A stretch of 64,000 nucleotides of DNA from a bacterium (GTDB taxonomy: Bacteria; SAR324; NAC60-12). The notes under the pieces are model-generated. The model saw only the letters and a program-made list of their open reading frames with translations. It did not search any database and was not told where the DNA came from. The position numbers were made by a program, and so were the translations under genes. Shown here piece by piece: positions 18,800 to 49,015 of this stretch (positions are counted from its first letter, which is position 1; every line of letters starts with the position of its first letter). The stretch is taken from NCBI GenBank assembly GCA_965233585.1, contig CBDDTI010000212.1, positions 1-64,000 of the forward strand. Direction: 5' to 3'.

Positions 18800-18831
18800 G
18801 AAGCTGGTGGGTCCTCATCGGATCCATCTGA

Positions 18832-23311: not shown

Positions 23312-23368
23312 ACTTCTGAGTTGTCTTTGCATTTGGACAAGTTAAAGAAGAAACTTAAACCTTCAACA

Positions 23369-30432: not shown

Positions 30433-30645
30433 GTTCTTTTCTTAAATGCGGGTTATTTACTCTAAACTCAAATTTACACTGACATTCAAAGTAAAAATCC
30501 CATTCTTTTAAACCTTTTAAAGTTTAATGTCTACCACCAACACGCGCTAGTTGACGCCCTAAAGGACCCAACACCGTCCATGTGTGAGGGCAAGTGATCG
30601 ATACGATCATCAAAATAAAATTTCAATTAAGAAACTAAGCTCGTG

Positions 30646-30950
30646 ATCAAGAAATTTAAAAACTCGAAATGACACGAACATAAATTTTCCGTTGATTGAA
30701 GTATTTAACGGAGATTAGATGATGTACATTGCATTGTCAACCAAGCACGTGTTCAAGGAATTTTAAAAACTCAAAATGTCATGAACATAAATTTTCCGTT
30801 GATTGAAGTATTTAACAAAGATTAGATGATGCACATTGCATCGTCAACCAAGCACGTGTCCAAGGAATTTAAAAAACTTGAAATAACATGATCATAAATT
30901 TTTCATTGATTTAAGTATTAAACAGAGATTAAATGATGCACGTTGCATCG
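30646..30950. repeat. ~106 bp tandem repeat, copy B
   Basis: Homologous to 6994-7296. Confidence 0.85.
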
Positions 30951-31182
30951 ACAATCAGTGACCATAAATTTACTGACAGAAATCTGATTGTTCAGGGTGT
31001 TGGGCAGGATTTTTCTCATGCAGTTATTTCCTTGCGCGATTGGTCTAGAAACCGTTTAAAAGTGAGCGCCTCACCGCTTAAATTTCTATAAAAGTCAGGA
31101 TTTATATTTTCCATTCCGTCATTCCATTTTCGTTCATTTACCAAGAAAAGTCTTCTACTCCAAGTCAATTCACAAGGTAAAA

Positions 31183-31974
31183 ATGCCTGGTCTTAACAAT
31201 TCTGAATCTCGTCAAGTAACCCATGACTCACAAGGGTTAAGGGTTACAGTACGTATTGCTGATGATTCAACATCAAACTCTAACATCAACAACAACAACA
31301 ACAACGCTGCCGATGATTCAACATCGGACCTTACAAACGTTATAAATAACTCTGATGATTTGACATCAACCATCAACTCTGATGATTTAACATCAGTATC
31401 TCCAACTGTTGTACCGATTGGACGAGGCAGGAGGTTGGCGAGACCAAATAACGTCTCAAACCCCTCTCCTGTCGGTCGCGGAGTTGGACGAGGTGGGTCC
31501 GTCCGCAACACCTCAAATATTTCGAATGTCGGACGTGGTGTTGGTCGAGGTCAACCAATTCAAAGAAATTCTCAACCATCTACTTCTGCTCCAAGGGCTG
31601 GGCGGGAGGTTGGACGCGGTGCTGGCAGGGGTGGAAGATATTTTCACCCTTACCGTCGTCCAGCAACCCAAACTTCGGCCTCTACCATAAACGGTACTCG
31701 TTCAAGTTCCGTTATTTTTATGGACAGCGATGGGGAAGAAGTTGAAGAGGAGGAGGAGAATTTTGATGGGTCGAATGACGACCACCTCTATTCTACTTGT
31801 GTCGAACATTTATTCAACAGAAGAAGAATAATTTTTGATATTAATGAAAGATATGCTGAGTCTTTGATTCAACGTCAAATACGCGCACTTGAGCGTCAAA
31901 ATATTTGGCTACAAAACGAATGCCAAAGATTAAACACTCAATTGCAACGATGTAGGGACTTGTTGTCTTCTTAA
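31183..31974 (+). CDS. RGG/acidic/leucine-zipper-like protein, copy B
   Basis: Intact homologue of 7529-8320. Confidence 0.8.
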   Translation: MPGLNNSESRQVTHDSQGLRVTVRIADDSTSNSNINNNNNNAADDSTSDLTNVINNSDDLTSTINSDDLTSVSPTVVPIGRGRRLARPNNVSNPSPVGRGVGRGGSVRNTSNISNVGRGVGRGQPIQRNSQPSTSAPRAGREVGRGAGRGGRYFHPYRRPATQTSASTINGTRSSSVIFMDSDGEEVEEEEENFDGSNDDHLYSTCVEHLFNRRRIIFDINERYAESLIQRQIRALERQNIWLQNECQRLNTQLQRCRDLLSS

Positions 31975-32059
31975 GATTTTTGAGTTTATAATGTATATAT
32001 TGTATAATGTAGTCTCAAATTAATGTTAAAATAAATTTTGATTTCAGAATTTTGTAAGA

Positions 32060-32779
32060 ATGCCGAAATCTTACGTGTGTCCCGAATGCCAAAAATCATT
32101 TGACAGAAAATCTTCTCGCGACAAACATCATTTATTCCGTCATCGCGAAACTACAAAATCTCGAGCTCGGACCCCACTTAATCAGTCGTTTCAATGCCCA
32201 TTTTGTGAGAACGAAGTAAGTTCCTTTAAATCGAGAAAAGATTTAGTCTCACACATTGACGCTTCTCATTTAGAGAATTTAAATTATTCATTGTACAAAT
32301 CTGCACTTAACGGAAAAATCAAATTTTATCGAAAACACATTTTTTCAAAAGAAACGCTTCAAGGATTTGTTGCAAATAAAAAAAATAGACAAGAAATAGT
32401 TGACGTTATTTGTCACGAACTAAGTAAAACTTTTACGGTTAAAGTTGCCCTTATTTTGACAGCGGCGTATCAAATTCCTGATTTGAATTCCGCTGCAGAG
32501 AAGAAGGTCATTGAGCCAAATACTACCAATATTGATGATACCTCTGATAAACCTTCTGATCAGTCGTCGCCTCAAATATTGTCCAATGATCGAGATGTCT
32601 TTGCTCTAAGAACCAGCTACATTCAATTCACGTCTTTTGATTCATCCCGCTCGTTAAAAGGCAAAGTCCAAAAATTATTACATAATTTAGTAAATAGAGA
32701 AGAAGATTTGTTAATGAGAGGTTCTGGATGGAGATTTGAATCTTTATCTTTTAGCGATATTCAAATTACTAGCATTTGA
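32060..32779 (+). CDS. Zinc finger plus putative terminal protein, copy B
   Basis: Intact homologue of 8407-9126. Confidence 0.75.
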   Translation: MPKSYVCPECQKSFDRKSSRDKHHLFRHRETTKSRARTPLNQSFQCPFCENEVSSFKSRKDLVSHIDASHLENLNYSLYKSALNGKIKFYRKHIFSKETLQGFVANKKNRQEIVDVICHELSKTFTVKVALILTAAYQIPDLNSAAEKKVIEPNTTNIDDTSDKPSDQSSPQILSNDRDVFALRTSYIQFTSFDSSRSLKGKVQKLLHNLVNREEDLLMRGSGWRFESLSFSDIQITSI

Positions 32780-32832
32780 TTTTTATGAACTTATTTTGTT
32801 TTATTCAAAAAAATTTCAAATAAACTTTGGAA

Positions 32833-35800
32833 ATGGATTTTATAGAAATTCCACGTGATTTAAAGAGATCTAATTGCTTGGAATGGAAAACTCGTTACGA
32901 TAAATTCAATTTTCTTTATCTGTACATTAGACATCTTTTTCCTGAGGAAACGGTTTCCGTTGTTGATTTTCGTCAAATGCCGATAAAGTATCTTAAAAAG
33001 TTTAATATAAGAGGTTTCAAGTTCCCTCTTCAATTTTGTAATTTAAAAAAATTTCTAAATAGAAACTCCCATTTACCAATTTCAATTTCAGTTTTTTATG
33101 AGAGTGAAGGTCAAGTTTCAAAGTTAGGTTTTTTTACTAATAAAAACAACAACAGAAACAAAAACATTTTAAATTTGTTAATGATAAAATATGATCCTGA
33201 AATCTCTCTTGAAAATGAATCTCCATTTTCTCGCCTTGCAAAACCAATTCAACGCAAGAAAAAATCTTCTTGTAAAAAGATTGTCAATTGTAGTTCTAAT
33301 GTCAAATTGGGTTTTTCTTCCAAGTTTAAAAAGATCAAGGATTTAAATCAACAGCACCATTTCTTTAAAATTACCAAAATCCAAGGTTTTTTGAATAATC
33401 GGGCCGGACTTTTGTCGGGTAAAAAAGCAGCTCAACAAAAGCACATCTATTGTGAAAAATGTCTGCTACATTTTCGATCCAAATCTAAAAAAGAAAAACA
33501 CGAAGACACTTGCTGTGATAAACAACGTGCTGTCTACCCAACCAAAAATTCCTCCATAAGTTTTACCAATCATAAACATAAATTTCATGCTCCTGTTGTT
33601 GGATTTTGTGATTTTGAATGTGTACTTCAAAGAAACAAAGAACGATCTAAATGTCAACTCTGTTTAAAAACTGAGTGTTTGTGTGCTTTTCCCACCAGTG
33701 ACGATATAAACGTGCATAGACCAGTGGGATATAGCTTGCTTTTTGTGGATTCGAATGATGAAGTATTTTTTCAAGAAGAATATGTAGGAGAGGATGCAGC
33801 CAAACATTTTTTGGATCGAATGCATTTCTATGAAAAAGTTGTTGACGAAAGAAAACAAAAATTTAGACATATTGTTAAAAATCAATCTAGTCCGCAAGAA
33901 TGGCAAATGTATCAAAAAGCAAAAGTTTGTCATATTTGTGGTGGTCAATTCAAAAAGTACTCTAGAAATTACAGAAAAGTTCTAGATCATGATCACGTAA
34001 CAGGGAAAATAATGGGCGCAGCTCATTCACTGTGTAACTTGACGAGATCCGGTCCCTTTCACACACCAATTTTTTTCCACAACGCTCAAGGGTAAGAAGT
34101 CTTAATTGGGTTTATTTATTAAACTAACACAAATTATGTACGCGTTTCAGATACGATTTGCATTTAATCGTGGAAGAGTTAAATGTTTCCAAATTTAAGC
34201 AAAATGTAAAAGTCTTAGCAAAAAACAGTGAAAAGTTTCGCACTCTTACATTGGGCAAATTTAAAATTCAAGATTCGTTAGAGCACATTTCTGGCAGTCT
34301 AGATGCACTTGTTCAAGATTTGAATCAGACCTCGAATTTTACCTTTCCCATTTTACAACAAATGGAAAGATATAAAAAAATTCCTGTTCGTCAAAAATCA
34401 AAAGCTTTAAAACTTTTAAAAAGAAAAGGCGTTTTTTGTTACGAACATTTCCAATCTCTACAAGAGATGAAGAAAAGTCGAAACCTTCCGTCCAAAGACT
34501 CTTTTTATTCTGAATTGAACGAAGAACACATTACGGAAGCGGATTATTCCCATGCTCAAGAAGTCTTTAAATCGTTCAAATGCAAGAATGTGGTGGATTA
34601 CATGATGCTCTATTGTTCTTTAGACGTTGTTTTGTTGTGTGAAGCATTTCTTCAGTATAGGAAAATGGTCATGGAACATTTTCAATTGGATCCTGTTTAT
34701 TATCTAGGTAAATTTTAATCTTTAACGTTGGATGTATCGTAATACTAAATTTATTCTACCTAAATTAGGAATTCCTGGCTTGAGTTTTGATGTCATGCTT
34801 ATGTTCTTTCAAAATTCAGAACAAGCTAAATCAGATAATAAGCTCACATCCGAATCTGAAACCTCCAAACCCCTCGGATCATTAGATGTCTATTCTGATC
34901 CTGAAATGGAGCGTTTTTTTACAAAGGGTATCAGAGGTGGGCAAAGTTTTATCGCTCAGCGTTATGCCAAAGGGAATAGCAATCCTAGAAAAAGCGGCGA
35001 TCACTTGTTATACATTGATGGTAATTTTATACTGTATTATCTGATAAAATCATTTTGTTATGATCCGTACAATTTTTCAGCCAACAACTTATATGGGAGT
35101 ATGGAAACTTTAAAATTACCAGTTTCTGATTTCCAATGGGTTCCAAAAACTGAATTTAAAAAATGGACTGCTGAAGATATTATCAACATTCCTTCGCAAG
35201 ACGATACTGGATATGCGTTTGAAGTTGATTTGCATTATCCTTCTCATCTTCACCAGGTAAATCCGATCTTTGTTGTGATACGTTATTTATTGTTTTGACA
35301 AGTTACACGATATCATTTTCAGGCACACGATCAATTTCCGCTGGCTCCGTATACAGACACGGTTTCTTTTAAACATCTATCTCCTTACAATCGCCGTTTA
35401 CTGAAACATCACTGCCCTCGAGATTATAGGAACAAAAGATACCGGAGCAAGAAATTGTTGAGCACTTTTTATGACCGAAAAAAGTACGTGGTGCATCTGG
35501 AAAACCTGCAGTACTACTTGAAAAAGGGCATGAAATTGCTGAAGATAAGAAAAGTCATGAAGTTTCGACAAAAAGCTTTTTTGAAGGAGTTCATCGAAAA
35601 GGTTACAAAGCTGCGATCAAATGCTCGCAATGACTTTGAACTCCGGCTTTTTAAACTTTTTGCCAACTCTACTTTTGGAAAATTTATTGGTAAGTTTTGA
35701 GATAAGATAATTTAATGATGTTGAGATTGTAAAAGACGCAAAAGCGTAAATTGACGCAGCGCGAATAGTAATTCAGTAAAAAATGAATTTGTTAAATACT

Positions 35801-38737
35801 CAAATGAATTTGGAGTCATTTTATATATTTTCTTTAAATTTGAGACACAAGTGCGTGGTGGTACCGGCGACAGTTGCGGCAGTACGTCCTGCCGGCACCA
35901 ACCACGCACTTAGCCTCATCAAAATCGTCATCGTCGTCGTCATCAGCTTCGTTGGCGGGGCCCTCATCGAAATCGTCATCGTCATCATCTTTGGTGTCAT
36001 CGGCTTCGTTGGCGGGACCGATGACGTCGACGGGGATGACGTCCGGACGTCCGGTGATGGAGCCGGCGATGGAGGCGGCGGTCGTCCTGATCATCTCGAT
36101 CAAGCCCCTGGCGAACCGTCTGAGACGGCCACCGCCTCCCATCAGTGGTGGACGCGGTGGTGCCTCTTCTGATGGCGGGTCCGGCAGCAGCTTGAACTTC
36201 TCCTCCTCCTCTCCTGTCCATTTCACCCTCAGTACCTCGTACCTCCCCCTCCTCATCATCCTTCCCAACTTTCCTTTGTCCATGACCTTTTCCTTCTCCT
36301 TCTCCTCTTCCTTCTCCAAAAAATTTGTTTTGAATTTTCCCGCATGGTTTTGTCAATTTTAGAAAATGAATCTCCAAACCTTTACATATTAATTAGCAAA
36401 TTATCTCATAAATATTCATAATATTAAATCAATATTAAATTAAAAATTCGCGAAATGAATTAATCAAGTACGCAAACTTTTGAAAAATCAATTTTTATAA
36501 AATGTTGTGTTTATTTTGTAATCAAAAGGAAAAAGAAAAAATGATCAAATTTAAATTTTAATTTTTTTTGGTAACTTTTCGAGCTGTAGACGGAGACCAC
36601 ACTGATGGAAATGCCGTTACTTGACGCACTTCTGGCGTCGGTGAAGGTTCCACGTGACGATAGGGTGGTGGTTTAGATTTTGATGTTGATTGTGAAGACA
36701 AATCAAATGTCACGCGATGAGAGGTCTGCTCATTAGATTTGGTAGGCTTCCATGATTCCGGCTCCGATCTTTGTGGGACGGATTTGTACGGGGTCCGTGA
36801 TGGCCAAGCAGGTGCCACGGGACGCTCGGAAGATGCCCATGATCCCCCACCCAAGGCCCCAGAAGATGACCATGCTCCTGCAGTTTTAGTAGATGACCAT
36901 GCTTCCCCAGTTTTAGTAGATGACCATGCTCCTCCACCTACAGCCCCAGAAGATGACCATGCTCCTCCAGTTTTAGTAGATGACCATGCTCCTCCGCCCC
37001 CAGCTCCAGCAGTAGATGTGCTCTTCCACGACTCCGAGCCTGATTTTTGTGGGACGGACTTGTACGGGGTCCGTGATGGCCAAGCAGGCGCCACGGGACG
37101 CTCGGAAGATGCCCATGATCCCCCACCCAAGGCCCCAGAAGATGACCATGCTCCTGCAGTTTTAGTAGATGACCATGCTTCCCCAGTTTTAGTAGATGAC
37201 CATGCTCCTCCACCCACAGCCCCAGAAGATGACCATGCTCCTCCAGTTTTAGTAGATGACCATGCTCCCCCGCTCCCAGCTCCGGCAGTAGATGTGCTCT
37301 TCCACGACTCCGACCCTGATTTTTGAGGGACGGACTTGTACGGGGTCCGTGATGGCCAAGCAGGCGCCACGGGACGCTCGGAAGATGCCCATGCTCCTCC
37401 ACCCGCAGCCCCAGAAGATGACCATGCTCCTCCAGTTTTAGTAGATGACCATGCTCCCCCGCCCCCGGCTCCGGTAGTAGATGTGCTCTTCCACGACTCC
37501 GACCCTGATTTTTGTGGGACGGACTTGTACGGAGTCCGTGATGGCCAAGCAGGTGCCACGGGACGCTCGGAAGATGCCCATGCTCCTCCACCCGCAGCCC
37601 CAGAAGATGACCATGCTCCTCCAGCCGCAGCCCCAGTAAAGCTACTGCCAGAAGTCGGACTTGAAGTTGCCTCCTCCTGACCTGATTTTATCACTTTTAA
37701 CCAAAAAGCCTTGCTCTTTTCCTGGTCTTTTTTATCCATTTTGACTTGGTGTTTATTTTGTGAGAATTTTTGATGACCGTTTATGTCGGGCTTTAAAAAA
37801 GGAATGATCTCAAATTGTAGTAAATTATAGCACATTGCTAATTACAGAGGAAAATGAAATGTGATATAGGACGGCTAGTTAGCTGAGGTGATTGCGCACA
37901 TAATCAATTTTCTTTATAAAATAAATCTTATTCTGCATTTCAGAAAATGTTCGAAATTACTCTGAAGTGGTCCTTTGTGGTGATGAACAGAGCTTAAGGA
38001 AAGCCAGTCTTGGTCAACACATCAACAGTTTTCAAATCATCAATGAGAACTTGGTGGCTGTCAACAAGAAGCCAGCAATAATAGAGCTCAGGAAGCCTTT
38101 AGCTGTTGGATTTTCTATTTTGGAATTGTCCAAGTTGTTTATGTACAGATCGTATTATGACACGATTCAACAACATTTTGGTGAAGAAAATGTGTCTTTA
38201 TGTTTCTCAGACACGGATTCTTTTCTTTTAAAAGTAAGATGCAACAACTTGGAAAGGGAAATGAAAAAATTGGAGCACATATTTGATTTTTCAAAGTACC
38301 CCAAACAACATCCTCTTTTCGATGACAGTAGAGCCAATCAGCTTTTTTATTTCAAAGACGAACTAAAAGGCAGAGCAGCTATTACTCACTTTATAGGCTT
38401 ACGTCCAAAATGTTATTCTATGAAAATTACTGATTTTTTAGACAAAAACAAAACAGAAGAAAAGAAAATTTGCAAAGGTTTAAAAAAATCTAGCATAAAA
38501 AAGCAATTAACCTATAACGATTACAAAAAATGTCTGAAACAGACTGTTCTAATTTACAAATCTTTCAAAAACTTAAGATCAAAGAATCATAAAATTCGGA
38601 CATGTTTTCAAAGAAAGATTGCGTTATCAGCAATGGATTCCAAAAGACACATTTTGAATTGCGGATATCACACTTTATCACTAGGAAATTGTCTTATTGT
38701 CAACAACAAATCGTCTAAATGCCCTATTTGTAAATAA
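32833..38737 (+). CDS. Protein-primed DNA polymerase B, copy B, 6 exons
   Basis: Exons 32833-34091, 34151-34707, 34769-35020, 35081-35256, 35323-35689 and 37944-38737; same splice sites as copy A. Confidence 0.95.
35834..36283 (-). CDS. Intron-nested antisense gene 1, copy B
   Basis: Same frame and Cys/His tail; different repeat expansion (GPANEADDD instead of DVIPA). Confidence 0.62.
   Translation of the reverse strand: MDKGKLGRMMRRGRYEVLRVKWTGEEEEKFKLLPDPPSEEAPPRPPLMGGGGRLRRFARGLIEMIRTTAASIAGSITGRPDVIPVDVIGPANEADDTKDDDDDDFDEGPANEADDDDDDDFDEAKCVVGAGRTYCRNCRRYHHALVSQI
36558..37739 (-). CDS. Intron-nested Gly/Ser/Trp repeat protein, copy B
   Basis: Intact from MDKKDQEK; repeat arrangement differs from copy A. 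Confidence 0.78.
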   Translation of the reverse strand: MDKKDQEKSKAFWLKVIKSGQEEATSSPTSGSSFTGAAAGGAWSSSGAAGGGAWASSERPVAPAWPSRTPYKSVPQKSGSESWKSTSTTGAGGGGAWSSTKTGGAWSSSGAAGGGAWASSERPVAPAWPSRTPYKSVPQKSGSESWKSTSTAGAGSGGAWSSTKTGGAWSSSGAVGGGAWSSTKTGEAWSSTKTAGAWSSSGALGGGSWASSERPVAPAWPSRTPYKSVPQKSGSESWKSTSTAGAGGGGAWSSTKTGGAWSSSGAVGGGAWSSTKTGEAWSSTKTAGAWSSSGALGGGSWASSERPVAPAWPSRTPYKSVPQRSEPESWKPTKSNEQTSHRVTFDLSSQSTSKSKPPPYRHVEPSPTPEVRQVTAFPSVWSPSTARKVTKKN

Positions 38738-38800
38738 ATAAAACATATTGTTACTTTTATTTAAGAAAAAATTTTTAAATATTTTTCAAAAACTAGCAAA

Positions 38801-39496
38801 ATGGATGGTTTTGATTTAAGGTTCAGTATTCCTTCCAACATGTTAATTGTTGGCCCAACATCGAGTGGAAAAACAACGTGGCTTAAACATTTAGTGGTTG
38901 GTAGGCATGAATATTTTGCAACTCCACCAGAAACAATGTTGTTGTTCTACAAAGAACCACAAAAAGCTTATGAATACATGGAAGATGATATGAATCGAGA
39001 CAAACGTTCAAACTCTCGCTTTCCAACATTTCGTAAATTTAAAAGTATTCCAAATTCGATTGAAGAATTGAAAGATATTTTGGAATCATATCCAAGAAAA
39101 ATGCCCAAATTAGTTGTTTTTGATGATTATTTAGACGATGTTGGGCAAATATTAAAACATTTTTTTACGGTTTTGACTCATCACTACAATTGTTTCACCG
39201 TTTTTCTGTGTCAAAATCTATTTGATAAAAAAGGTGATTTGCGGACATTAAGCATAAACACACAGTATATGGTTCTTTTTAACAATCCTCGGGACAGAAG
39301 TGCGGTTGCGCATTTGGCTAAACAAATTTTCCCCGGACGAGTCGGAATTTTAAATAAAGCATACAGGGAAGCTGTTAACGGTCGAAGTCACGGATATCTC
39401 CTTCTAGATTTCCATCAACAACAAGACGATAAAGTCAGAATTCGAAGCAACATTTTTCCGTACGAGGGACTGATGAAAGCTTACGTTACCGTTTAA
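38801..39496 (+). CDS. A32/FtsK-like packaging ATPase
   Basis: Walker A and B motifs; intact 231 aa. Confidence 0.94.
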   Translation: MDGFDLRFSIPSNMLIVGPTSSGKTTWLKHLVVGRHEYFATPPETMLLFYKEPQKAYEYMEDDMNRDKRSNSRFPTFRKFKSIPNSIEELKDILESYPRKMPKLVVFDDYLDDVGQILKHFFTVLTHHYNCFTVFLCQNLFDKKGDLRTLSINTQYMVLFNNPRDRSAVAHLAKQIFPGRVGILNKAYREAVNGRSHGYLLLDFHQQQDDKVRIRSNIFPYEGLMKAYVTV

Positions 39497-39544
39497 AGGA
39501 TTTTCATATCTATTTAAGAAAAATAAAAAATTGCAACTGTCAAA

Positions 39545-39918
39545 ATGTCTAAAACATTAGGAAAAGCTAGTTCACTTTTTTATGTAATAAAAAAATTAAA
39601 ACATCAGGATTGTGCCAATTTTTTAAGTCATTTGGACGATCGCGGTGTTGAATTACTTTGCCGTATATTACATTACGTTTTGAACGGTGACTTGCCCATA
39701 CATGGCAAAGTACGAACACGTCTTCAAAAAAAATAAGAGCTCATTTGGTAGAATTTAGACGTCTTGCTGCACCACCGCGTCGTTCTTCCGACATTTCGAA
39801 AAAAAGAAAAATATTACAAAAGGGCGGAATTTTAGGAGTTTTATCAGCGATCGCCAGCACCGTCATCCCTCTTTTGGCTCAAATTATTGCAAATAAGAGT
39901 TCGCAACGTCGTCGTTAA
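39545..39918 (+). pseudogene. PM/pX-like small core protein (1 nt deletion in A-run at ~39730)
   Basis: Copy C supplies the in-frame version ending LQKGGILGVLSAIASTVIPLL. Confidence 0.8.
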
Positions 39919-39921
39919 AAA

Positions 39922-41382
39922 ATGAGCTCAGGAGTAAAAATAAAACCACATGATGAGATGTATTCCATGTTTTTAGTACCTAAAAGATTATATTATTCAT
40001 TAATAAAAAATACGGAAGACGATGAATCAAAAAAGGAACTTATTTCTATGAATGAAAAACCGGAAACAACCAACTATATTGAAAACGCCATTAAATTTAA
40101 AAATCTACAAGACAGACAGAAAATAATCCAAACTGGGGATAAATTACTTCGTTTTGGGTCTGATAAATTACCGAATGTCACATCAATTGCCCAATCTGAT
40201 AGCATGGGCCGTACTTACCAATCTCTTTCGAGATCACCATCCACTCAAATCCCTCAACGAGAAGAAATACAGAATGTAATGTCTCCTGGTCGAGTCACCC
40301 AAAAAGGTAGCAGTTTTGACCGCGCTTACCACCCTGTTTCAAGATCACCATCCACCCAAATTACGCAACGAGAAGAAATACCAAATGCACTAACACCTGC
40401 TCGAATTGATACCAATATGGATCTCACGGACGTATCTCTTTACAGAACACCCACTGAAATTCCCCAACAAGAAGAAAATAATTTACCTAGTACCCCCATT
40501 ATTGAAAGACAATTTGTTGCAGAAAAATCTCTTAGTCCTGAAAAAACAAAAAGTCCGAACGAATCAGCTTATTCAACTCCTGTTGCTACCAAACGAGAAG
40601 AATGGCGAGAAACACCTGTTTTAGAAGCGATGACGAAAAGAAATTCAAAAGGCAAATTAGTTTGTCCAGTTCCTGATTGTTGGAAGCAATATGTTGACGA
40701 AGGACAATTAGGCAAACATTTGCTAAAAGATCATCCTAAAGATATAGCTTTGAAAGACAAAAAGACCATTAAAGGAATGATTTCCAGCCCTTACGCTAGA
40801 ACAAACAGCTCAAACGAAATGGATTACTCATACGCACTTTCCGCAATAAAATCTCCAGTTGTGTTAAATTGGCGAAATACACCTATTGCGAAAGCAGTGA
40901 AAGAAAAGAATGCGGCAGGCAAAATAGTTTGTCCTTTTCCCAATTGCGGGAAGCAATATGTCGGCATTCCACAATTTGCCAAACACATGATGAAAGATCA
41001 TTATAAAGAATTGTCTGTAAGAAATCAAAATAAAATTTTTGGAATGACCTCTACCCCTCGAAAAAGAAGATTAAGAGGAATTGGAAGCTCTTCTCCTTCA
41101 TTTCCACTTACACCTGTTAAAATACGATTTTCAGCTGGAAAAGCTCAATCGAAGGGTGCAACAAAAAGAAATTCCGCTGATGCTAACATGACTCCTGCAC
41201 AAACCAAAACCAGATCAAAATCAATGAAAATGTTACAATCTAAAAGCCCAATAAAAAGGGACCCTATTGAAGCTGGTATGTCTCCCGCAAAAACCAGATC
41301 AAAAACAAGAAAAATGTCTAAATCAGAAGCTAAAGTAGATTCTGTTAAAAAACTTTTTTCAGGAAAATATCCAAAGTTATGA
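39922..41382 (+). CDS. PZ-like core protein with two C2H2 fingers and basic SPxK tail
   Basis: MFLVPKRLY N-terminus, CPVPDC..H..H and CPFPNC..H..H fingers. LRGIG fits the adenain consensus (M/I/L)xGx|G. Confidence 0.75.
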   Translation: MSSGVKIKPHDEMYSMFLVPKRLYYSLIKNTEDDESKKELISMNEKPETTNYIENAIKFKNLQDRQKIIQTGDKLLRFGSDKLPNVTSIAQSDSMGRTYQSLSRSPSTQIPQREEIQNVMSPGRVTQKGSSFDRAYHPVSRSPSTQITQREEIPNALTPARIDTNMDLTDVSLYRTPTEIPQQEENNLPSTPIIERQFVAEKSLSPEKTKSPNESAYSTPVATKREEWRETPVLEAMTKRNSKGKLVCPVPDCWKQYVDEGQLGKHLLKDHPKDIALKDKKTIKGMISSPYARTNSSNEMDYSYALSAIKSPVVLNWRNTPIAKAVKEKNAAGKIVCPFPNCGKQYVGIPQFAKHMMKDHYKELSVRNQNKIFGMTSTPRKRRLRGIGSSSPSFPLTPVKIRFSAGKAQSKGATKRNSADANMTPAQTKTRSKSMKMLQSKSPIKRDPIEAGMSPAKTRSKTRKMSKSEAKVDSVKKLFSGKYPKL

Positions 41383-41394
41383 AAGTAAAATATA

Positions 41395-41877
41395 TCAACA
41401 TTTATTTTCAATTTTTTTTATAAAATGAGTTACAATTTTATCATTTTCTGATTTGGGATTTTTTACAAATATTTTAACGAATTGTTGAGGGGTCATTAAA
41501 TTGTTGCCCACAGATAAACAAAATGCGCACGTGTACCATCCGCAAAACAAAGAACGGAAACTCTGAATTGGGTGAGATAAGATAATTTTGAAGGAGTTCT
41601 TCTCTATCCAGGGTCGTAAAAACTTCATCAAACATTTATTCCATATCGGTGGTAAAAAACCGAAAGAATCAAAATAATAGAGTTGATTTTTTTTGTTAAT
41701 GTACATTGCTACGAAATGAGATCCTTCTTGATTTCTTTTGGATAAGTTAGCGATCAGACAGCAAGGCAATGAAAGCGGATCAGATGGCAAGTCGTCGACC
41801 GAAAATACCCCGATGAAATTCTTACATCTGGGTCGAATGTAATTGTTTAAAAAGATATTTGATAACCCACCCTCCAT
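41395..41877 (-). CDS. Adenain-like cysteine protease
   Basis: His (GSHF), Asp (FDSFG) and Gln/Cys (IQSFRSLFCG) all present. Confidence 0.94.
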   Translation of the reverse strand: MEGGLSNIFLNNYIRPRCKNFIGVFSVDDLPSDPLSLPCCLIANLSKRNQEGSHFVAMYINKKNQLYYFDSFGFLPPIWNKCLMKFLRPWIEKNSFKIILSHPIQSFRSLFCGWYTCAFCLSVGNNLMTPQQFVKIFVKNPKSENDKIVTHFIKKIENKC

Positions 41878-41880
41878 ATT

Positions 41881-43229
41881 TTAATTGGTTCCTTTCATGA
41901 CTTGTTGAAATTGATCTATTTTAATACCGGAGTTAAAAATAGATAAGGCTAGAACGTATATTGGATGGGGAGTGATTTGGGAAAAAGCCAACTCTAAATC
42001 TAAATTTCCATAATTTTCCGGATGTGTGTGGTACGAATTACATTGATCTGGTGTCAAGTCGGCCGCCAGAAAAAATCTTCCATTTATAAAAGCATCATAC
42101 GTCAAGCCAATGGACTGATTGCCGTGCGAAATACCTATACTGTCGTATAAATGCCGATATAAGTCAACGGCGTCCCCCTCCCCTATGTTAGGTTGAAAAG
42201 GTTTGGGAAATACGCATTGCCCGTTCTTTTTTAAATTAAACGAGGAAAGATTAAAGTGTTGAAAATTAAAAGGATTTTTGTCGGGAGCATGCGACATAGC
42301 CTGATTGTGAACCATCACAAAAAACACTTGTTTGGGTAATGTTCCATTAGCAATATTAGCGATGTTAAAAGACGACACGCCTTGAGGAATAACGTAATGT
42401 CTTAAACGTGTAGAGCTAAAAGGTAGGTAGCACGGTTCTTTTAAAAGTTTGTTTTTGAAACTTTCTCGTATTATCAACGTGGGCAACACTTTTCTCATAT
42501 GCAATTTGACATCTTTCAACACAATTTTGAAAGGTTTTGCTGCTGCAGGATCTTGAAGCAAACCAAATGTTTCAGCCGATCTAACCAATTTTATCTTGAT
42601 ATCCACATTTGGTGGTAAGAATCGATCAGTGTCAAACAGATCAACGGCTATACGCGAGTTAAAAAATACTTTTTTTCCGTTTAAAATTAAATTTTTCTTT
42701 TTTTTAAAGAATGAGAGGAAACGTCTTCAGTAATTTTGGTGGTGGTAGTTTCGTCTTCAGTTTCAGGATAATATCCTTCAGCAGCCAGATAAGTGTCTTT
42801 TACGTCAATATTGTAACTTAAATATGATTGTAAAAACATTCTCCAGGGGTAGGTGACCGCCGAACTTAAATCAGCTACTTGAACACCGTTCAAATACACT
42901 TCCACTTGACTAAATAAACAAGCAGCAAAATGATTTACCAACGCGGTTTTACTTGCGTCCGTGACAAAGCCGCCGTCATCATTTGTCACTACAAAATGTC
43001 CACTAAGTCTGGTTTGACTCAGTATAAAAGAACACTCGTTGTCGCGAGGAACAAGAAATTCTACCGGACCGGTGTTGGTGATAGAAGCCACGCTATTGTA
43101 AATAACGTGAGCCCCTTCCAATAGACCCGTTTCTACTTCTAAGGGTGCGTGAAGCGCTAAACCACTTTCTGTGCCATCGTTTTGTTCCACGGCCAATCCA
43201 GCAATTCCGCTTTTGTCGGGCAAGCCCAT
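41881..43229 (-). pseudogene. Major capsid protein (frameshift in homopolymer at ~42690-42705)
   Basis: GPVEFLV, FSQVEVYLNG, DLFDTDRFLPPNVDIKIKL, NPFNFQHFNL and DLTPD motifs. Start at ATG 43229 is inferred. Confidence 0.9.
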
Positions 43230-43236
43230 ACCAAAG

Positions 43237-43779
43237 ATGGAAGTGATGGTCAGCAATGTTAAAATCAGTTGCAAAATTCGTCTCATCGACAGCGACAAAA
43301 TTTCTTTTAATACCGATAATGTACTAAAACATTATAATAATTTTACTGTTGTTAAAAAAAAATATTCTTTTATTGTGTTTACTAAAACAAAGCAAAATCG
43401 AAATTTCCACGTAAATATTACTAAAATCCCTTCCACAGAGCATATACCAAAAGCATTAGACGAATTAAAACTTGTTATAAGTAGTAAATTTATTACTGAA
43501 AAGTTTAAAATAGAAAACATGACTTGTTTGTGCCATATGTCATCAAAAATCAATTTATTAACATTTTACAACAATTTGAAATTAAATGTAGATTTTGAAA
43601 TTATCCAAAAGAGATACGACTCTGAGAAATTTCCTGGAATGTTTTTAACATTAAAGAAGTGTTCTGCTTTAATATTTTCGTCTGGAAAAATAGTAATAAT
43701 TGGAGCTTCCTGCGAAAAAGACGCTAAACAAGGAATAAAAATTATTTATGAATTGCTGAAAAAATATAAAACTGAATAA
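43237..43779 (+). CDS. TBP: TATA-binding-protein-like factor
   Basis: Two-repeat pattern VSNVKISC / IENMTCLC; YDSEKFPGMF...ALIFSSGKIVIIGA matches TBP YEPE.FPGL...LIF.SGK.V.TGA. Confidence 0.88.
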   Translation: MEVMVSNVKISCKIRLIDSDKISFNTDNVLKHYNNFTVVKKKYSFIVFTKTKQNRNFHVNITKIPSTEHIPKALDELKLVISSKFITEKFKIENMTCLCHMSSKINLLTFYNNLKLNVDFEIIQKRYDSEKFPGMFLTLKKCSALIFSSGKIVIIGASCEKDAKQGIKIIYELLKKYKTE

Positions 43780-43885
43780 ATTCAATATAATAAAAGATTA
43801 CGTCGGTTTATTTGTAAAATCAGTCAAATTTTGAACTTCATTCAATAAACAATGGAATTATGTTCAAAAATTAGATTGGATTAAA

Positions 43886-44605
43886 ATGTGCATTCATCAA
43901 TATATAATAGAAGACACCAGACAAGGAGACGTAGTGTGTACTGAGTGTGGTTTAGTTATTGATAAAATATATTGTGAACCAAATTTAGAAACAAAATGGG
44001 AAAAAATAAAAAATTTTAATGAAGAATTTGAACAAAACAGCGAACATTTAAAGAAAGAAAAAAATATTTTAAAAAATTTATGTAATAAATTACATTTAAA
44101 TAATGATGTTACAAACACTATTTTTAATTTGTGGTCAGAAATAGCAGCGTGGCATTATCAAAAAAATGGAAAAATTAAAATTAATCCAAAAGGCTTAATT
44201 GCTATGGCATTGTATCAAAGTTTAATAGAGGAAAAAATTCCCCGTCCAATAAGTCATTTGTGTCAGGAAATTGGTATTAGTCCAAAAACGGTATGGCGAT
44301 GGATAAAATTATACAGACAAGATTCGACCAACACAATTAAAACAGAAAATTCTATAAAAGCAAAAGATATGGCAGAATATTTTTTACAGCCTCTACAGTT
44401 AAATTATCAAGAGATGACAACTATAAAAGAAAAACTAAATAAAAATGAAAATAGTTCTTTTGCTCCTAGGACTTTATTAGCAGCATGTGCTTATGCCTTT
44501 TTAAAAGAAACAAGAGCACTATATCCGAGCGTCAAAAATACGGCTCGTATTTTAGGCGTCAGTGTTATGTCTTTATACAGATGTCTTAAAAGTCTAGAGC
44601 AATAA
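43886..44605 (+). CDS. TFIIB: TFIIB-like transcription factor
   Basis: Zinc ribbon C.H..IIED...GDVVCTECGLVI followed by two cyclin-like repeats (PKGLIAMALY..., PRTLLAACAY...ARILGVS). Confidence 0.88.
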   Translation: MCIHQYIIEDTRQGDVVCTECGLVIDKIYCEPNLETKWEKIKNFNEEFEQNSEHLKKEKNILKNLCNKLHLNNDVTNTIFNLWSEIAAWHYQKNGKIKINPKGLIAMALYQSLIEEKIPRPISHLCQEIGISPKTVWRWIKLYRQDSTNTIKTENSIKAKDMAEYFLQPLQLNYQEMTTIKEKLNKNENSSFAPRTLLAACAYAFLKETRALYPSVKNTARILGVSVMSLYRCLKSLEQ

Positions 44606-44613
44606 GAAAATAT

Positions 44614-45015
44614 ATGAATTACCACAGCGGCTTACGTTGGCAACGAGGCTCGGGAATCGGATCACTTTTTTCCGGAATCTTTCGCGGTTTAATGCCGGTA
44701 GCAAGATCAGCGGTAAAAACTATTGGAAAAGTGGCTAGAAGCGCACCGATAAGATCCGCAGGTAAAGCTTTGAAAAAAGAGGCGACAAAGGCGGCGGTAG
44801 AAACTGCATTAGAGGCTTTGGAGGGTCAACCGGTCGGCAGAAAAGCTAAACAACGTTTAAAATCAGCTACTCGCGGTATTTTGCTTAACGCTGCTAGACA
44901 AGCAGATACCAACAACGAATATCGAGCTCAAAATTCGAGCAGAAAGAGGAAAACCCCGTCAATTGCTAAATCTAGGAAAAAAAGACGGAGAATAACTAAA
45001 CAACCCCTGTTTTAA
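44614..45015 (+). CDS. PW-like basic/amphipathic virion protein
   Basis: QRGSGIGSLFSGIFRGLMP motif typical of Maverick PW, plus an Arg/Lys tail. Confidence 0.82.
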   Translation: MNYHSGLRWQRGSGIGSLFSGIFRGLMPVARSAVKTIGKVARSAPIRSAGKALKKEATKAAVETALEALEGQPVGRKAKQRLKSATRGILLNAARQADTNNEYRAQNSSRKRKTPSIAKSRKKRRRITKQPLF

Positions 45016-45021
45016 AAAGAA

Positions 45022-46105
45022 ATGACAACAAAAGAGATTTTTTTAAAAGAATATGCAAGACCAGGCTCACCAATAGCTTTTGCATCTCCTGCGTTGATTT
45101 ATTATTATTATGGAAAAAAAATTCCCTTGACGACAATTGAAGAATGGTTAAAGGGAACTGATTCTTACACACTTCATAAACAACCAAAATTACCTAAACC
45201 TAGAAATCCAACATTTGCTTATCATAAGAGATATCAATTTCAAATTGATCTTATAGATTTAGGAAATTTGATCGAAGAAAATGACGGGAATAGATACCTT
45301 TTAACAGCTATTGATATTTTTACACGATTCGCGTTTGTAGAACCCTTAAAAAATAAAACAGCAAAAACTTTTATGGAGGGATTTGAGTCTATTATGAAAA
45401 GAGCAAAAAAGTTTCCTCGTAGAATTTTAGCTGATAAAGGCGCAGAAATAAAGAATAAATTGTTTCAAGCCTACTGCAAAAACAATAACATTCTTCTATT
45501 ACACAGCAACAATTTTGTGCACGCCCCTTTTGTGGAAAGATTTAACCGAACTTTAAAAAATCTGATGTTTAAATACATGACTCACGAAAATACAGATAGG
45601 TACATCGACGCGTTACCTTTTCTTGTTCATACCTACAACCATCGTAAACATCGTATGATTGGGATGTCACCCGCTGAAGCTGAGCTCCCCGGTCGGACTT
45701 ATTTTATTAGAAGAAAACAGGAATTGCATTATTCAAAGTTTAAAAGAAAAAGACCAAAATACAAAATTGGTCAAACCGTGCGCATTAGCATAATGAAGGG
45801 AAAATTTGACAGAGGTTTTACACAACAATTTAAGGAAGAAATTTTTAAAATAAAATCAATTTTTACTCGTTTGCCTAAACCTACTTATGAATTGGAAACT
45901 TTAGAACAGGATGAAACTCTGGAAGGAAATTTTTATGAGAGTGAACTTACTCCCGTGAATGAGCCGGAATTATTTGTGATTGAAAAGGTTTTACGAACAA
46001 AAAAAGATAAAAAAAACAGGCGAAAAAATGGTTTTGGTGAAATGGAAAGGGTATAAAAACCCTAGTTGGACATATGAGAAAGATGTAGTTGATGTGTCAC
46101 AATAA
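45022..46105 (+). CDS. Retroviral-like DDE integrase with C-terminal chromodomain (extra A at ~46010)
   Basis: YTLHK, FQIDLID, LADKGAE, VERFNRTLK. Shifting frame in the A-run gives MVLVKWKGYKNPSW to TAA at 46103-46105. Confidence 0.92.
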
Positions 46106-46111
46106 CGTGGA

Positions 46112-47874
46112 ATGGATTATAACATTTATTGCGTGTCAAACGCTGGTTCCAATACGGACGTCAAAAATACTTTAAATTCCTTTACCAATTTATTTCCGCA
46201 AAATTTAGATTTGAAAAATAGAGAATGGGAAATTGGAATAGTATCTATGGGGTTACATTATAATTACAACCAATTAACCATGACAAAAGGTCAAATCGGT
46301 GTCATAACGCTAAAAAACGAATTAACATCTATAAATTCTTCAGAAGAGGACATAAAGACTGAGATTTTAGACCAGACAAAATCCGTTTGGGTTTTGCCTG
46401 ATTTAGATGAAGAGGATTTGACAGTTTATAGATTAATGCAAAACTTGATGCAATATATTTACAAGGAAGGAATGAAATTGACTAGTGCTGACCTCAAATC
46501 AGACGGTGAAAATAAAAGAGTCTACATAATTGAAGAAGGTCCTAAAAAAGAAACCGAAAATGAGACGGAAAATGAAAATTACAATTATAATAGATACTTA
46601 CTAATTCATCAACATTTAATAAAAATTATAAAGTTAAGATGTTATAAAGACGGAGTGTTATTTTCTGGAGAAAAATCAATTAAATATTTTGGTAACGAAT
46701 ATGTGTATTATCCGTTACAAAAAAATTTTAGGTTTCAAACCATAGCAAATAAAGTGACTTCCGTTTTAAAACCCGGTTTAGTTCACGTAAAATCAAATAT
46801 TATTTCCGACGTTCCTAACAGTGATAATTATTCCACAATTATGTTTACAACAACTTTACCTAAGCAAATGGAGGGTCATTATTTTTACCATAATGTAAAA
46901 AAGGTCAGATATTATCAAGTGCGGCAAACCAATATTGAGACGATAAACTCTCAATTCACAGATGCTTTTGGAAATCTTTTAAGCTTAAACGAAGGTCAAC
47001 CGTCTCTAATTCATTACCATTTGAGGGAGAAAGAAAAAAACATGGATCACGAATTGAGACACGTGCGAATCGATTCGAAAGTAGATGCCAAATTGGATTA
47101 CGAAAATACAAATAGTAGCTTTTGGGTGCATTTAAAACATCCGCTGCATTTAAATCCAAACGCGAAAATTGCCCTGATGGATATTTCTTTTCCCGACAGC
47201 ATATGTAGCATTCCAGAATCAATCGCTAATGAACCAATAATTATAAAACTGGTTAAGGATGAAAACATAGAGGAAGAACACAAATTGAATATACCAAAAA
47301 ATTATTTTTGTGACTCTAACGATTTAACAACGGCAATGAATGATTTATTGACAGAAGAATTAAAGGAACTAGTATATTTTGAAAACGTCAATGGATATTT
47401 AAGAATTACGGCTAAAACTAATCAAATTTTTATAATTGGATTTCCAAAAAGCCTCTGTCCAATTTTAGGAATGTACGATTACCCCCTGGAAGAAAATCAA
47501 AGAGTCTCTGATGAAAACAACTACCATTTTTTTGCTGTGAGAAATTACTCACTTTATCAAGCACCACAACCAGACATTTACAAATAGACATTTACAAACT
47601 GTATCCTGGTGTTATGATTTGTTATGCCAATTTTGTTCAGCATTCTATCGTCGGAGACAAATTTTACCCAATACTTAGAATTATTCCCACGATCGGCCAG
47701 TCAAAACAAAATGACTACTGCTCTATCCATTTTGAGCATTTAGAATTTATAAAATGCAATGTTGATTATTTAGACAACATGAAGATCGAATTGAGGAGAT
47801 TAGACGGAGACTTGATTGAATTCGACGACAAAAAAAGTGTTGTTTTAAATATTGTAATTAAAAACCCAATTTAA
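46112..47874 (+). pseudogene. Minor capsid (penton) protein with two tandem penton-like domains; broken by a 14 nt duplication at ~47572-47598
   Basis: Motif S....NT..SF...(L/F)...L.L....I appears twice; C-terminal SIVGD..PILRII. AGACATTTACAAA is duplicated. Confidence 0.82.
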
Positions 47875-47885
47875 ATTTTATTTTA

Positions 47886-48195
47886 TTAAAACGAATCATT
47901 TAAAGACAATGAATTATTGGTAAAATTTACCAAAGAAAGTTCTAAAGTACGATTTGTCAAAGCGAGTGATTTTAAAGCGTTACAAGTTGATACTGATAAT
48001 AACCATATACAAGCGCAAATAGCAATAATAATAGTAACGATCATTCCAATCAAACTACAGAAATCAGTACACAGGTCAGGGTAAAAACGGTAGAGGCTAG
48101 GGAGATTGCAAATCTTGATGAAATTGATCCAATTCTTCAAAACGGTGGTTTGGTTCTGAGCGTTGACGCATATTTGGTTGAACGGCGTTGTTCAT
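47886..48195 (-). pseudogene. Small single-pass membrane protein (probable frameshift near 48100)
   Basis: ATG at 48195 overlaps the upstream stop; TM LIGMIVTIIIAICACIWLL and NRT/NFT/NNS/NDS sequons lie in another frame. Confidence 0.45.
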
Positions 48196-48575
48196 ACTTC
48201 TTCTTCAAAAACTGAGTGTTGTTCCAAACAAAAATCTTTGCACAACAATTTCATGCAAAAAGATGCATAAAAATGAAACACTTTTAGTTCGTTTTGGATT
48301 TCACGATACCACCACAACCTGGTAGCTGAGTCGCCAGAATTATTAGGTTTTCCAAGAAGTTTGTCTTTGAGGCAGGTCCTGTAGTTTACCAATTCACTGT
48401 CCAATGATTCCAAAGACTCGTTGATTCTGCGAAGATGAGCAGAAATGCGACGCATACAATGCACAACGTGGGTTGGATCTGAAGTATTGTAAATACCGGC
48501 TTCGTCAGGACCAGAATCCCAGTCAGAATTATGCGGTGATCCTGATGTTGGTTGGTTGTTGACTTGTCCACCCAT
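48192..48575 (-). CDS. Small helical protein, paralogue of 3192-3497
   Basis: Shared motif pattern with the left-end ORF. Confidence 0.7.
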   Translation of the reverse strand: MGGQVNNQPTSGSPHNSDWDSGPDEAGIYNTSDPTHVVHCMRRISAHLRRINESLESLDSELVNYRTCLKDKLLGKPNNSGDSATRLWWYREIQNELKVFHFYASFCMKLLCKDFCLEQHSVFEEEV

Positions 48576-48951
48576 TCTGCACGACTGAAACAACATTTAA
48601 CATAGACACAACTAATAAATAAAAGCGTGCTCGGCAAATATTTGGGCGAGTCGAAAAAAGCATGAAAAAGCATGAGAAATAGAGATGGTCTTCGGAATTA
48701 TTTTAAGTGGAGTAATAACTCACAATTTTAAAATAAATGCGCGAGATAAAATAAAATTGAAAAATTTTAACCCCACACATTTATTAAAAAACCATGAGAA
48801 AAGAGATGTCTTGATATTCGAAACGATTGAAAACGACTGTGAGTTGTATTTTATCAGGATTGGATGAAAACTTTGATTTGCGCGATCAAATTTTTGTCTT
48901 ATCAAAAACAACATTAGAAATTCTTCTTTTTAAAATTTGGAGGTTGAAAAA

Positions 48952-49015
48952 TTACATTTGAGCAGGTTTGGAGCAAAAGGATGGAATTTTAAACAATTTA
49001 CGTTCTCAGAACCTT
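48952..49015 (-). repeat. Remnant of right TIR
   Basis: Imperfect reverse complement of 3001-3066; the outer part is absent. Confidence 0.72.

Follow-up and report, generated by a model that had tools for sequence, protein, structure and literature searches.

A TBP/TFIIB gene pair as a fixed and selected part of a Maverick/Polinton lineage

The window analysed here is a stretch of 64,000 nt (positions 1–64,000 of contig CBDDTI010000212.1, assembly GCA_965233585.1). It holds copies of an element that is a Maverick/Polinton of about 22.4 kb, and in one of them, copy B, two neighbouring genes on the + strand encode homologues of the initiation factors TBP and TFIIB. The TBP-like gene (43237..43779) runs from ATG to stop and specifies a two-repeat protein of 180 aa. 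The compact TFIIB-like gene (43886..44605) specifies 239 aa, in which a short linker joins a zinc ribbon to two cyclin-fold repeats carrying terminal helix–turn–helix motifs. An initial annotation, made from the sequence and a list of its open reading frames (ORFs), had placed the pair at 43237..44605. The interval proved to be exact: both ORFs are uninterrupted, lie on the + strand and are adjacent, separated by 106 nt. The neighbours were also as described there, with a capsid-like gene upstream on the minus strand and a small basic protein and an rve integrase downstream. The intactness that it reported holds for TBP and TFIIB but not for the element copy as a whole, in which several genes are interrupted.

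Residues 89–177 of the TBP-like protein, and no others, matched the Pfam TBP family (PF00352), with 65.3 bits (E 4.5e-18; cut-off 22.9); relatives scored 42–71 bits. A TBP family profile was prepared from alignment A2 of relatives (27 sequences) and searched against the PDB. All 35 distinct sequences retrieved at E<=0.001 were TBPs or TBP fusions, with archaeal TBPs at the top (1.9e-24 to 4e-23) and eukaryotic ones at 6e-18 and weaker. The profile aligned to these TBPs at positions 93–181 only, and the N-terminal repeat was undetectable by sequence. The AlphaFold2 model had a predicted local distance difference test score (pLDDT) of 92.3 and a predicted template-modelling score (pTM) of 0.82. 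Searching this model against the PDB with Foldseek gave 48 matches at E<=0.001, of which ranks 1–44 were all TBP; these alignments covered about 190–200 columns, spanned both repeats and had template-modelling (TM) scores of 0.57–0.71 at 18–27% identity. The lower ranks were unrelated enzymes with E above 5e-4. In the model the N-terminal repeat consists of five strands and a long helix, with coil in place of helix H1. As modelled, the C-terminal repeat of the protein is canonical and the N-terminal one strongly diverged, the latter being recognisable only by fold.

Residues F48, E130, F132, P133, F136, F147 and G150 are invariant in the TBP alignments, and N35 and F36 are invariant or nearly so. 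In the AlphaFold2 model F36 and F48 of the N-terminal repeat and F132 and F147 of the C-terminal repeat occupy matching places, at the start of strand S3 and the end of S4. Cellular TBPs carry their DNA-kinking phenylalanines at the start of S3 and the end of S4, and the four residues of the element protein would be equivalent to these.

For the TFIIB-like protein, Pfam Zn_Ribbon_TF scored 30.5 bits (cut-off 29) and the Pfam TFIIB repeat 18.5 bits, under its cut-off of 23.6; several helix–turn–helix models matched as well. The zinc ligands C2, H4, C18 and C21 are invariant across 23 sequences, the first pair being spaced C-x-H. With a family profile from alignment A1 of relatives (21 sequences), 13 of 13 PDB sequences at E<=0.01 were TFIIB or archaeal TFB. 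Human TFIIB was matched at 1.7e-10 over its ribbon (residues 22–45) and both cyclin repeats (residues 110–290), the latter aligning to profile positions 65–250. The last zinc ligand is separated from the first core helix by a stretch of about 30–45 residues that varies in length and sequence. The AlphaFold2 model reached a pLDDT of 72, with the ribbon and linker below 50. Its Foldseek ranks 1–33 were all TFIIB, TFB or Brf chains, with TM scores of about 0.5 against TFIIB cores, and cyclins followed from rank 34. The start codon in the sub-lineage of the window lies about 12 codons later than in most lineages, where the protein has 248–252 aa; the four zinc ligands are retained. The homologies named in the initial annotation were recovered by Pfam, by PDB profile searches and by AlphaFold2 with Foldseek, which agree on both TBP and cyclin-fold matches. 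A complex of TBP with the TFIIB core (residues 52–239) was also predicted with the alignments as input; it scored 0.00 twice, which speaks neither for nor against binding.

The region between the two genes (43780..43885, + strand) carries a TATAAAA that overlaps the final TBP codons and, further downstream, TCAGT motifs resembling initiators. By eye, an initiator-like element lies about 32–35 nt downstream of the TATA motif, at the same site, in lineages C112, C435 and C593; in the window's own lineage (C288) TATAAAA is present and the nearest TCAGT is about 40 nt away. From these motifs, 43780..43885 may be regarded as a candidate core promoter of the TFIIB gene.

Further copies were sought in the assembly (12 Mb in 747 contigs), in which hundreds of small contigs are copies of the Maverick element. 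The 42 TBP matches fell into identity classes of 96–100, 87, 74–77, 38–41 and 33–40%; the window copy is intact and 39 of the 42 are without a stop. In all 39 full TBP copies, which represent five lineages, TFIIB follows 80–129 nt downstream, and the neighbourhood is held with it: the small basic gene accompanies 39, the integrase 38 and a divergent capsid-like gene upstream 39. Ratios of nonsynonymous to synonymous substitution rates (dN/dS), obtained by the Nei–Gojobori method, were 0.16–0.21 for TBP and 0.16–0.28 for TFIIB in every dS bin, indicating that both genes are under purifying selection. On contig C435 the identity to the window is 39% for TBP, 33% for TFIIB, 61% for the integrase and 64% for the ATPase, so that TBP and TFIIB diverge faster than the other conserved element genes.

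A metagenome scan beyond the assembly gave five contigs (L022–L026), and a sixth (L027) came from IMG/VR. L022 and L023 have the protease and capsid genes on the minus strand, followed by TBP, TFIIB, the small basic gene and the integrase on the + strand, and L023 is long enough to include the large gene of unassigned function. Identities in these two contigs were 41–48% for the integrase, 32–34% for TBP and 23% for TFIIB. The shorter L024 and L025 are consistent with the same gene order as far as they extend, and L026 comprises TBP only. Synteny of the pair is held down to 22–34% identity in unrelated samples. The TFIIB repeat lies above the Pfam cut-off in L022 and L023 (32.4 and 33.9 bits), and Pfam TBP scored 51.8–56.9 bits in L022 and L027. 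L027, labelled as a giant-virus metagenome-assembled genome (MAG), is a 20.6 kb element with the same gene order as the window element; its TBP scored 51.8 bits and its TFIIB repeat 42.9 bits, and its integrase combines rve with a chromo domain. Thus the pair, described in the initial annotation from one copy, recurs in other family members (39 of 39 copies in five lineages, L022, L023 and L027) and is a fixed, selected part of this Maverick/Polinton lineage. L027 itself holds a full Maverick gene set, and none of its scanned ORFs is a giant-virus marker or an RNA polymerase domain; the contig was probably mis-binned.

Much larger collections were scanned with profiles. Scoring 1.84 billion representatives with a TFIIB profile from alignment A4 (23 sequences) yielded 3177 matches at E<=0.001, of which 748 reached E<=1e-10 and 57 reached E<=1e-30. 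The 150 best matches measured 105–293 aa, the majority covering nearly the whole profile, and 16 of 20 sampled matches had a TFIIB repeat or zinc ribbon in Pfam at E<=0.001. Of 2941 candidates for the TBP profile A7, 286 clusters passed E<=1e-5, and 119 of the 120 listed carried PF00352, with lengths of 145–237 aa. Most proteins of these 748 and 286 clusters come from metagenome-type assemblies. The numbers suggest that the module is common and has been overlooked, and the combination of TBP and TFIIB is probably widespread. IMG/VR was searched with four alignments: the window-clade TBP alignment found no relatives among 43 pattern matches, the TFIIB alignment gave four marginal matches (E 6e-4 to 1e-3), alignment A6 of compact TFIIBs found no relatives among 330 pattern matches and TBP alignment A8 found one locus, L027. 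Among genome contigs, the TBP alignment found no relatives in 24 pattern matches.

The pair is not a recent host capture, as judged by sequence comparison. Recent host copies are ruled against by the 18–27% identity of the TBP to solved cellular TBPs and by an N-terminal repeat that sequence searches do not detect; together with dN/dS values of about 0.16–0.28, this answers the concern, voiced in the initial annotation, that the genes might be recent retrocopies free of selection. Each of the 41 PF00352 matches found in the assembly is a gene of the element itself, and none is a canonical host gene. Cellular TBP and TFIIB and archaeal TBP and TFB share the two folds and the domain order of the element pair. 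Compared with human TFIIB (316 aa), the element proteins (239–252 aa) are about 70–100 residues shorter, chiefly between ribbon and core. The N-terminal repeat of the element TBP departs from that of cellular TBP: sequence searches miss it, and the model shows no helix H1 there.

Among viral structures in BFVD, the TBP-fold matches had 8–19% identity and included giant-virus TBPs, an asfarvirus B263R homologue, herpesviral BcRF1/UL87/U58 and a poxviral early factor; no Polinton-type virus was present among the named matches, many rows being without a name. By gene content, the closest relatives are the giant-virus TBP and TFIIB genes, which act with a viral polymerase. The Nucleocytoviricota (the asfarvirus B263R family and mimivirus-like and phycodnavirus-like TBP/TFIIB) are DNA viruses of the double-jelly-roll lineage that likewise have TBP and TFIIB folds of their own, and it is their TBP-like proteins that the TBP model matched best among viral folds, at 8–19% identity. 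They have their own multisubunit RNA polymerase, genomes of 100–2500 kb and mostly cytoplasmic factories, whereas the element is about 22 kb long and integrating, with no RNA polymerase domain found. TFIIB is a core marker gene of giant viruses (PMC11502894; 10.1101/2022.05.25.493380). The poxviral factor VITF-3 is an atypical TBP/TFIIB-like heterodimer in promoter recognition (PMC12917281); it acts in the cytoplasm with the poxviral polymerase, and its folds are highly derived, whereas the element pair is readily recognised by Pfam and PDB profiles.

The closest functional analogue appears to be the TBP-like late-gene complex of herpesviruses, for which there is no evidence of common descent with the element pair. 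The herpesviral vTBP works with several other viral proteins, and we know of no TFIIB homologue there. The TBP model matched BcRF1, UL87 and U58 weakly by fold (E 2e-4 to 6e-4). The herpesviral TBP-fold proteins measure 577–1005 aa, in contrast to the minimal 180 aa two-repeat TBP of the element, which is paired with TFIIB. Like the probably nuclear element, these nuclear viruses carry a TBP-fold protein but no RNA polymerase of their own: the vTBP of beta- and gammaherpesviruses (BcRF1/UL87/ORF24) serves late genes, and early proteins of Epstein–Barr virus form a viral pre-initiation complex for these (PMC6713331).

No description of a TBP/TFIIB pair in a Polinton, Maverick or adintovirus was found in the full-text literature, a scope that leaves aside subscription-only papers and Repbase. 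The statement of the initial annotation that no description was known to it stands for the pair and requires a qualification for TBP: the legends of Figs. 5 and 6 of Starrett et al. (10.1101/697771) label 'TBP' on maps of some midsize eukaryotic linear dsDNA (MELD) viruses from non-animal datasets. The Fig. 6 legend explains TBP as a homologue of a host protein; the label is accompanied neither by a TFIIB nor by a discussion of conservation or role. This is the sole mention found in a Polinton-related virus; it is known from legends, and membership of the MELD-virus gene in the present family is not implied. In passages of papers that contain both 'polinton' and 'TFIIB', TFIIB figures as a giant-virus marker. 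The words 'transcription', 'zinc' and 'cyclin' do not occur in the capsid paper PMC4028283, and matches to 'TATA' in a paper on a cryptophyte polinton-like virus were discarded, as they lie in the reference list only. A small integrating virus in which no RNA polymerase domain is found and which has its own selected TBP and TFIIB is apparently an undescribed combination.

Mavericks/Polintons are assumed to depend wholly on host transcription factors. We consider it on balance probable that the products of the two genes are a private initiation-factor pair which recruits host RNA polymerase II (Pol II) to the promoters of the element; that host Pol II initiation is reprogrammed in this way, as the initial annotation had proposed, is what we infer. 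The element would be expressed in the host nucleus. Nuclear expression is probable because no RNA polymerase was found and the PolB gene is split in a manner that resembles nuclear splicing, and is further suggested by integration through a chromodomain integrase and by TATA and TCAGT-type motifs before some genes. There the element TBP (vTBP) would attach to AT-rich core promoter sequences of the element and bend them, the element TFIIB (vTFIIB) would dock on the conserved C-terminal repeat of vTBP and on flanking DNA via its helix–turn–helix motifs, and the zinc ribbon of vTFIIB would bring in host Pol II. The two proteins could form a private minimal pre-initiation module for some or all element genes, most plausibly the surrounding structural genes, and expression of the element could then rely less on host TFIID and its regulators, or prevail in competition with them. 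In cellular TBP the side of the N-terminal repeat contacts TFIIA and several regulators; the diverged N-terminal repeat of vTBP would fit a factor that has gone from the host regulatory network. A simple TATAWAW scan, with the expectation taken as the share of sequence, found TATA-like motifs 25–150 nt upstream of start codons in excess (5 versus 1.2 expected and 7 versus 1.4), albeit in small numbers. No motif specific to structural genes was seen by eye.

A more far-reaching version appears improbable. The pair would form an orthogonal minimal system that uses element-specific core promoters and loads host Pol II without TFIID or TFIIA; it would already have been present in the ancestor of a very large Maverick clade comprising hundreds of lineages. 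It would also be related to the core TBP-like and TFIIB genes that Nucleocytoviricota possess, and would represent a stage before RNA-polymerase capture on the way from Maverick-like nuclear viruses towards giant viruses.

Several points weigh against private recruitment of Pol II. The TFIIB-like protein has a short reader/linker that was modelled with low confidence (residues 25–51, pLDDT below 50), so that productive initiation with Pol II is not assured. The TFIIB gene lies behind a canonical TATA box, equally usable by host TBP, and several element genes, including TBP and the capsid gene, have no TATA-like motif upstream. In cells TBP also serves Pol I and Pol III, and Pol II is therefore not the sole possible target. 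Among the sequencing runs containing the stretch (six rows in two studies) there is no RNA. As to distribution, the gene context was seen in five lineages of one assembly and in six outside contigs; the 748 and 286 relatives are known without genomic context and need not all be Maverick genes.

Some of the same features could be read as interference, in which the pair, as a decoy, would tie up host Pol II, TFIIF or promoter DNA; host transcription would be skewed or shut down, or silencing blocked, and the element promoters would not be driven. In cells the reader/linker of TFIIB sets the start site and helps to open the DNA, and its shortening here would suit such a decoy, as would an N-terminal TBP repeat without sequence similarity or helix H1 and the fast evolution, typical of host-interface proteins, of TBP and TFIIB (39 and 33% identity) relative to the integrase and ATPase (61 and 64%). 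We nevertheless regard interference as unlikely, since the stirrup motif of the second repeat is invariant, as are the zinc ligands and the phenylalanine positions that face DNA, and a pure decoy would not require all of these. That the two genes stay adjacent in all 39 copies, and also in distant relatives, suits a working pair better than a single-target inhibitor. A slim chance is given to dependence on a helper virus, with the element living like a virophage in the factory of an iridovirus, ascovirus or entomopoxvirus and the pair recruiting the multisubunit RNA polymerase of that virus. Viral TBP-like and TFIIB-like proteins are otherwise known from Nucleocytoviricota, which also supply the best BFVD fold matches of the TBP model; L027 lies in a contig binned as a giant-virus MAG, and entomopoxvirus-associated Polinton-like viruses have been reported (10.1101/2023.10.16.562556). 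However, PolB is split by short gaps in all lineages, which points to nuclear splicing, a process absent from cytoplasmic factories. The element also integrates, with a chromodomain integrase and dozens of genomic copies, its TBP is nearer to cellular TBPs (18–27% identity) than to any viral one (8–19%), and canonical TATA and arthropod-type initiator motifs stand before some of its genes.

The pair might alternatively be a Pol III (or Pol I) module, the TFIIB-like protein being Brf-like and driving, with vTBP, small noncoding RNAs similar to the adenoviral VA RNAs. This is compatible with the use of TBP by all three nuclear polymerases (PMC7275037), with the Brf1 and Brf2 chains at ranks 25–32 among the fold matches of the TFIIB model and with the roughly 4.5 kb of little-coding sequence at the left end of the element. 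It is nonetheless very doubtful, as TFIIB chains rank above Brf chains throughout and no small RNA gene was seen, though none was looked for. The TFIIB-like protein moreover ends at the second cyclin fold, without the C-terminal extension that defines Brf1. That the two are passenger genes, captured from a host and decaying or neutral without a role for the element, is scarcely credible. The partial decay of the window element copy itself would agree with it, against which stand dN/dS values of about 0.2 at every divergence level, the open frame in 39 of 42 TBP matches, the synteny held down to 22–34% identity in unrelated samples and the lack of any closely similar cellular TBP.

The pair is of interest beyond this locus. 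Mavericks are usually described by their replication, integration and capsid modules, to which the pair adds a fourth, for transcription initiation. Two small proteins may redirect Pol II, and as a tractable natural experiment the pair could reveal how little suffices for this; it also provides a handle on how integrated copies become switched on despite host silencing. It also bears on giant-virus origins, as TFIIB and TBP-like genes are giant-virus core genes; Maverick-like elements are candidate giant-virus ancestors in the nuclear-escape scenario (PMC10328495).

The Maverick identity given in the initial annotation was upheld by the finding of a protein-primed PolB, an rve integrase and terminal inverted repeats (TIRs). 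The TIRs measure about 66–100 bp, with about 86% identity between the left end of copy A (3001) and the right end of copy B (49015). The absence of an RNA polymerase, also noted there, agrees with the scan: no RNA polymerase domain was present among the scanned element ORFs (most ORFs of at least 100 aa) and PolB pieces. For the remaining Maverick genes, the ATPase and protease fall in the right families but below the cut-offs, and the capsid assignment is an Atlas lead.

Directly after TFIIB, a gene on the + strand (44614..45015) encodes a small basic protein of 133 aa that was also seen in L022, L023 and L027. Its N-terminus is conserved, amphipathic and rich in glycine, its tail is rich in lysine and arginine, and the protein was without a match in the Pfam scan; we would guess at a virion core or adenoviral pVI-like protein. 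The rve integrase follows (45022..46056, + strand; Pfam rve 37.8 bits, cut-off 32.6). Its open frame of 346 aa compares with 362 aa in 22 other copies, the C-terminal (chromodomain) part being interrupted here. The next conserved gene, of unassigned function (46112..47874, + strand), is split into 491 and 86 aa and forms a single open frame of 583–585 aa in seven other copies of the window lineage. Its nearest Atlas clusters are hypothetical proteins of Preplasmiviricota, which serves as a lead only. Near the right end, an ORF of 134 aa on the minus strand (48192..48596) is conserved across lineages.

Upstream of the pair lies the capsid-like gene, a double-jelly-roll candidate (41881..43298, minus strand), which is split into frames of 203 and 241 aa. 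The frame is open for 281 aa here versus 457–522 aa in 23 other copies. An intron was considered as the cause of the split and rejected, as other copies have a single open frame. The Pfam scan gave no match; in the nearest Atlas clusters, PF21738 (DJR-like_dom) is present in 24% and 15% of members, which is taken as a lead. The divergent lineages C435, C98, C593 and C93 have two tandem capsid-like paralogues between the protease and TBP, and the window lineage has one. The likely capsid-like start (43229, minus strand) and the TBP ATG (43237, + strand) are divergent and 7 nt apart, a tight arrangement also found in L022 and L027. Each promoter must then lie inside the coding region of the other gene, or far upstream with splicing. 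Beyond the capsid-like gene is an adenain-like cysteine protease of 160 aa (41395..41877, minus strand), for which Peptidase_C5 scored 15.5 bits, below the cut-off of 21.3; its position is conserved, and the L027 homologue scored 17.9 bits. It is preceded by a C2H2 zinc-finger protein of 486 aa (39922..41382, + strand) with weak zf-C2H2 and FOXP-CC matches, of which the L027 homologue also has C2H2 fingers, and by an FtsK/A32-type packaging ATPase of 231 aa (38801..39496, + strand) with sub-cut-off matches to Pox_A32 (19.3 bits) and FtsK_SpoIIIE (16.4 bits). The homologue of the ATPase in L027 matched Adeno_IVa2 with 18.3 bits.

The protein-primed PolB gene (32833..38737, + strand) was located by tblastn with the pieces of the C435 gene. 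It consists of pieces at 32833–34092, 34149–34709, 34765–35025, 35074–~35274, ~35311–35694 and 37940–38737, with short gaps and one gap of about 2.2 kb. Motifs Exo I–III and A, B and C were read in the homologue on C435, PF03175 (DNA_pol_B_2) matched 35311–35694 with 25.9 bits against a cut-off of 25.8, and an HNH/EndoVII-like motif is present in the region. A first impression that the element lacks a DNA polymerase was overturned by the C435 gene, the located pieces and the PF03175 match. The short gaps recur in all lineages and look like introns. Antisense within the largest gap lies a GC-rich repetitive ORF (36558..37835, minus strand; 425 aa) with internal tandem repeats and no match in the Pfam scan. 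This ORF (421–425 aa) has an equivalent in copy A (12946–14211, minus strand) and occurs in the window and 76% lineages only, not in the divergent ones.

To the left of PolB are two genes on the + strand (31183..32779): a 263 aa gene with a TATAAAAG box upstream and a 239 aa C2H2 zinc-finger gene. At about 32020–32059, and at the homologous sites in C112 and C435, a polypyrimidine tract ending in CAG precedes the ATG of the zinc-finger gene, which hints at a spliced leader. The left end of the element has about 4.5 kb with little coding sequence.

No element copy in the window has both ends. A fragment of a third copy (1..2651, minus strand) matches 39606–42256 at 98% identity. Copy A (3001..15848, + strand) is 95–97% identical to copy B; its left TIR lies at about 3001 and its right side is cut by a long terminal repeat (LTR) retroelement. 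Copy B, which holds TBP and TFIIB (29768..49015, + strand), is truncated on the left at the same retroelement, and its right TIR ends at about 49015; repeat coverage falls to zero past about 49000. Copy B is partly decayed, with interruptions in the capsid-like gene, the 491 + 86 aa gene, the C-terminus of the integrase and, by stops, a small gene after the ATPase. The LTR retroelement (15842..29715) is about 13.9 kb long, with LTRs at 15842–16175 and 29383–29715 that are 96.7% identical. Its ORFs measure 516, 257, 1259, 1008 and 607 aa, the last being an envelope of the baculovirus F type (42.7 bits), and it looks like an errantivirus. The type of this envelope gene may point to an arthropod host, as may the bias of the capsid-like clusters towards arthropods.

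The assembly is filed as prokaryotic (92% complete and 2% contamination according to its own metrics) and comprises three contigs of 0.6–1.07 Mb and hundreds of about 9 kb. At least some dozens of the ~9 kb contigs, and probably more, are copies of the eukaryotic Maverick and other animal-type repeats; the assembly is probably a bacterial bin that has swept up high-copy host repeats. Head-to-tail tandem arrays were observed on C112 (period 18,053 bp, units 99.7% identical), C328 (about 20.2 kb) and C435 (about 17.7 kb). Such arrays are unusual for a TIR element and could be concatemers, nested integrations or an assembly effect. In the window, the interval 2651–3000 matches up to 85 places in the assembly, far more than the Maverick does, and is probably a small high-copy repeat. 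Outside the element, degenerate tandem and inverted repeats at 50600–51900 and 54150–55320, with 74–96% identity between units, look like satellite DNA.

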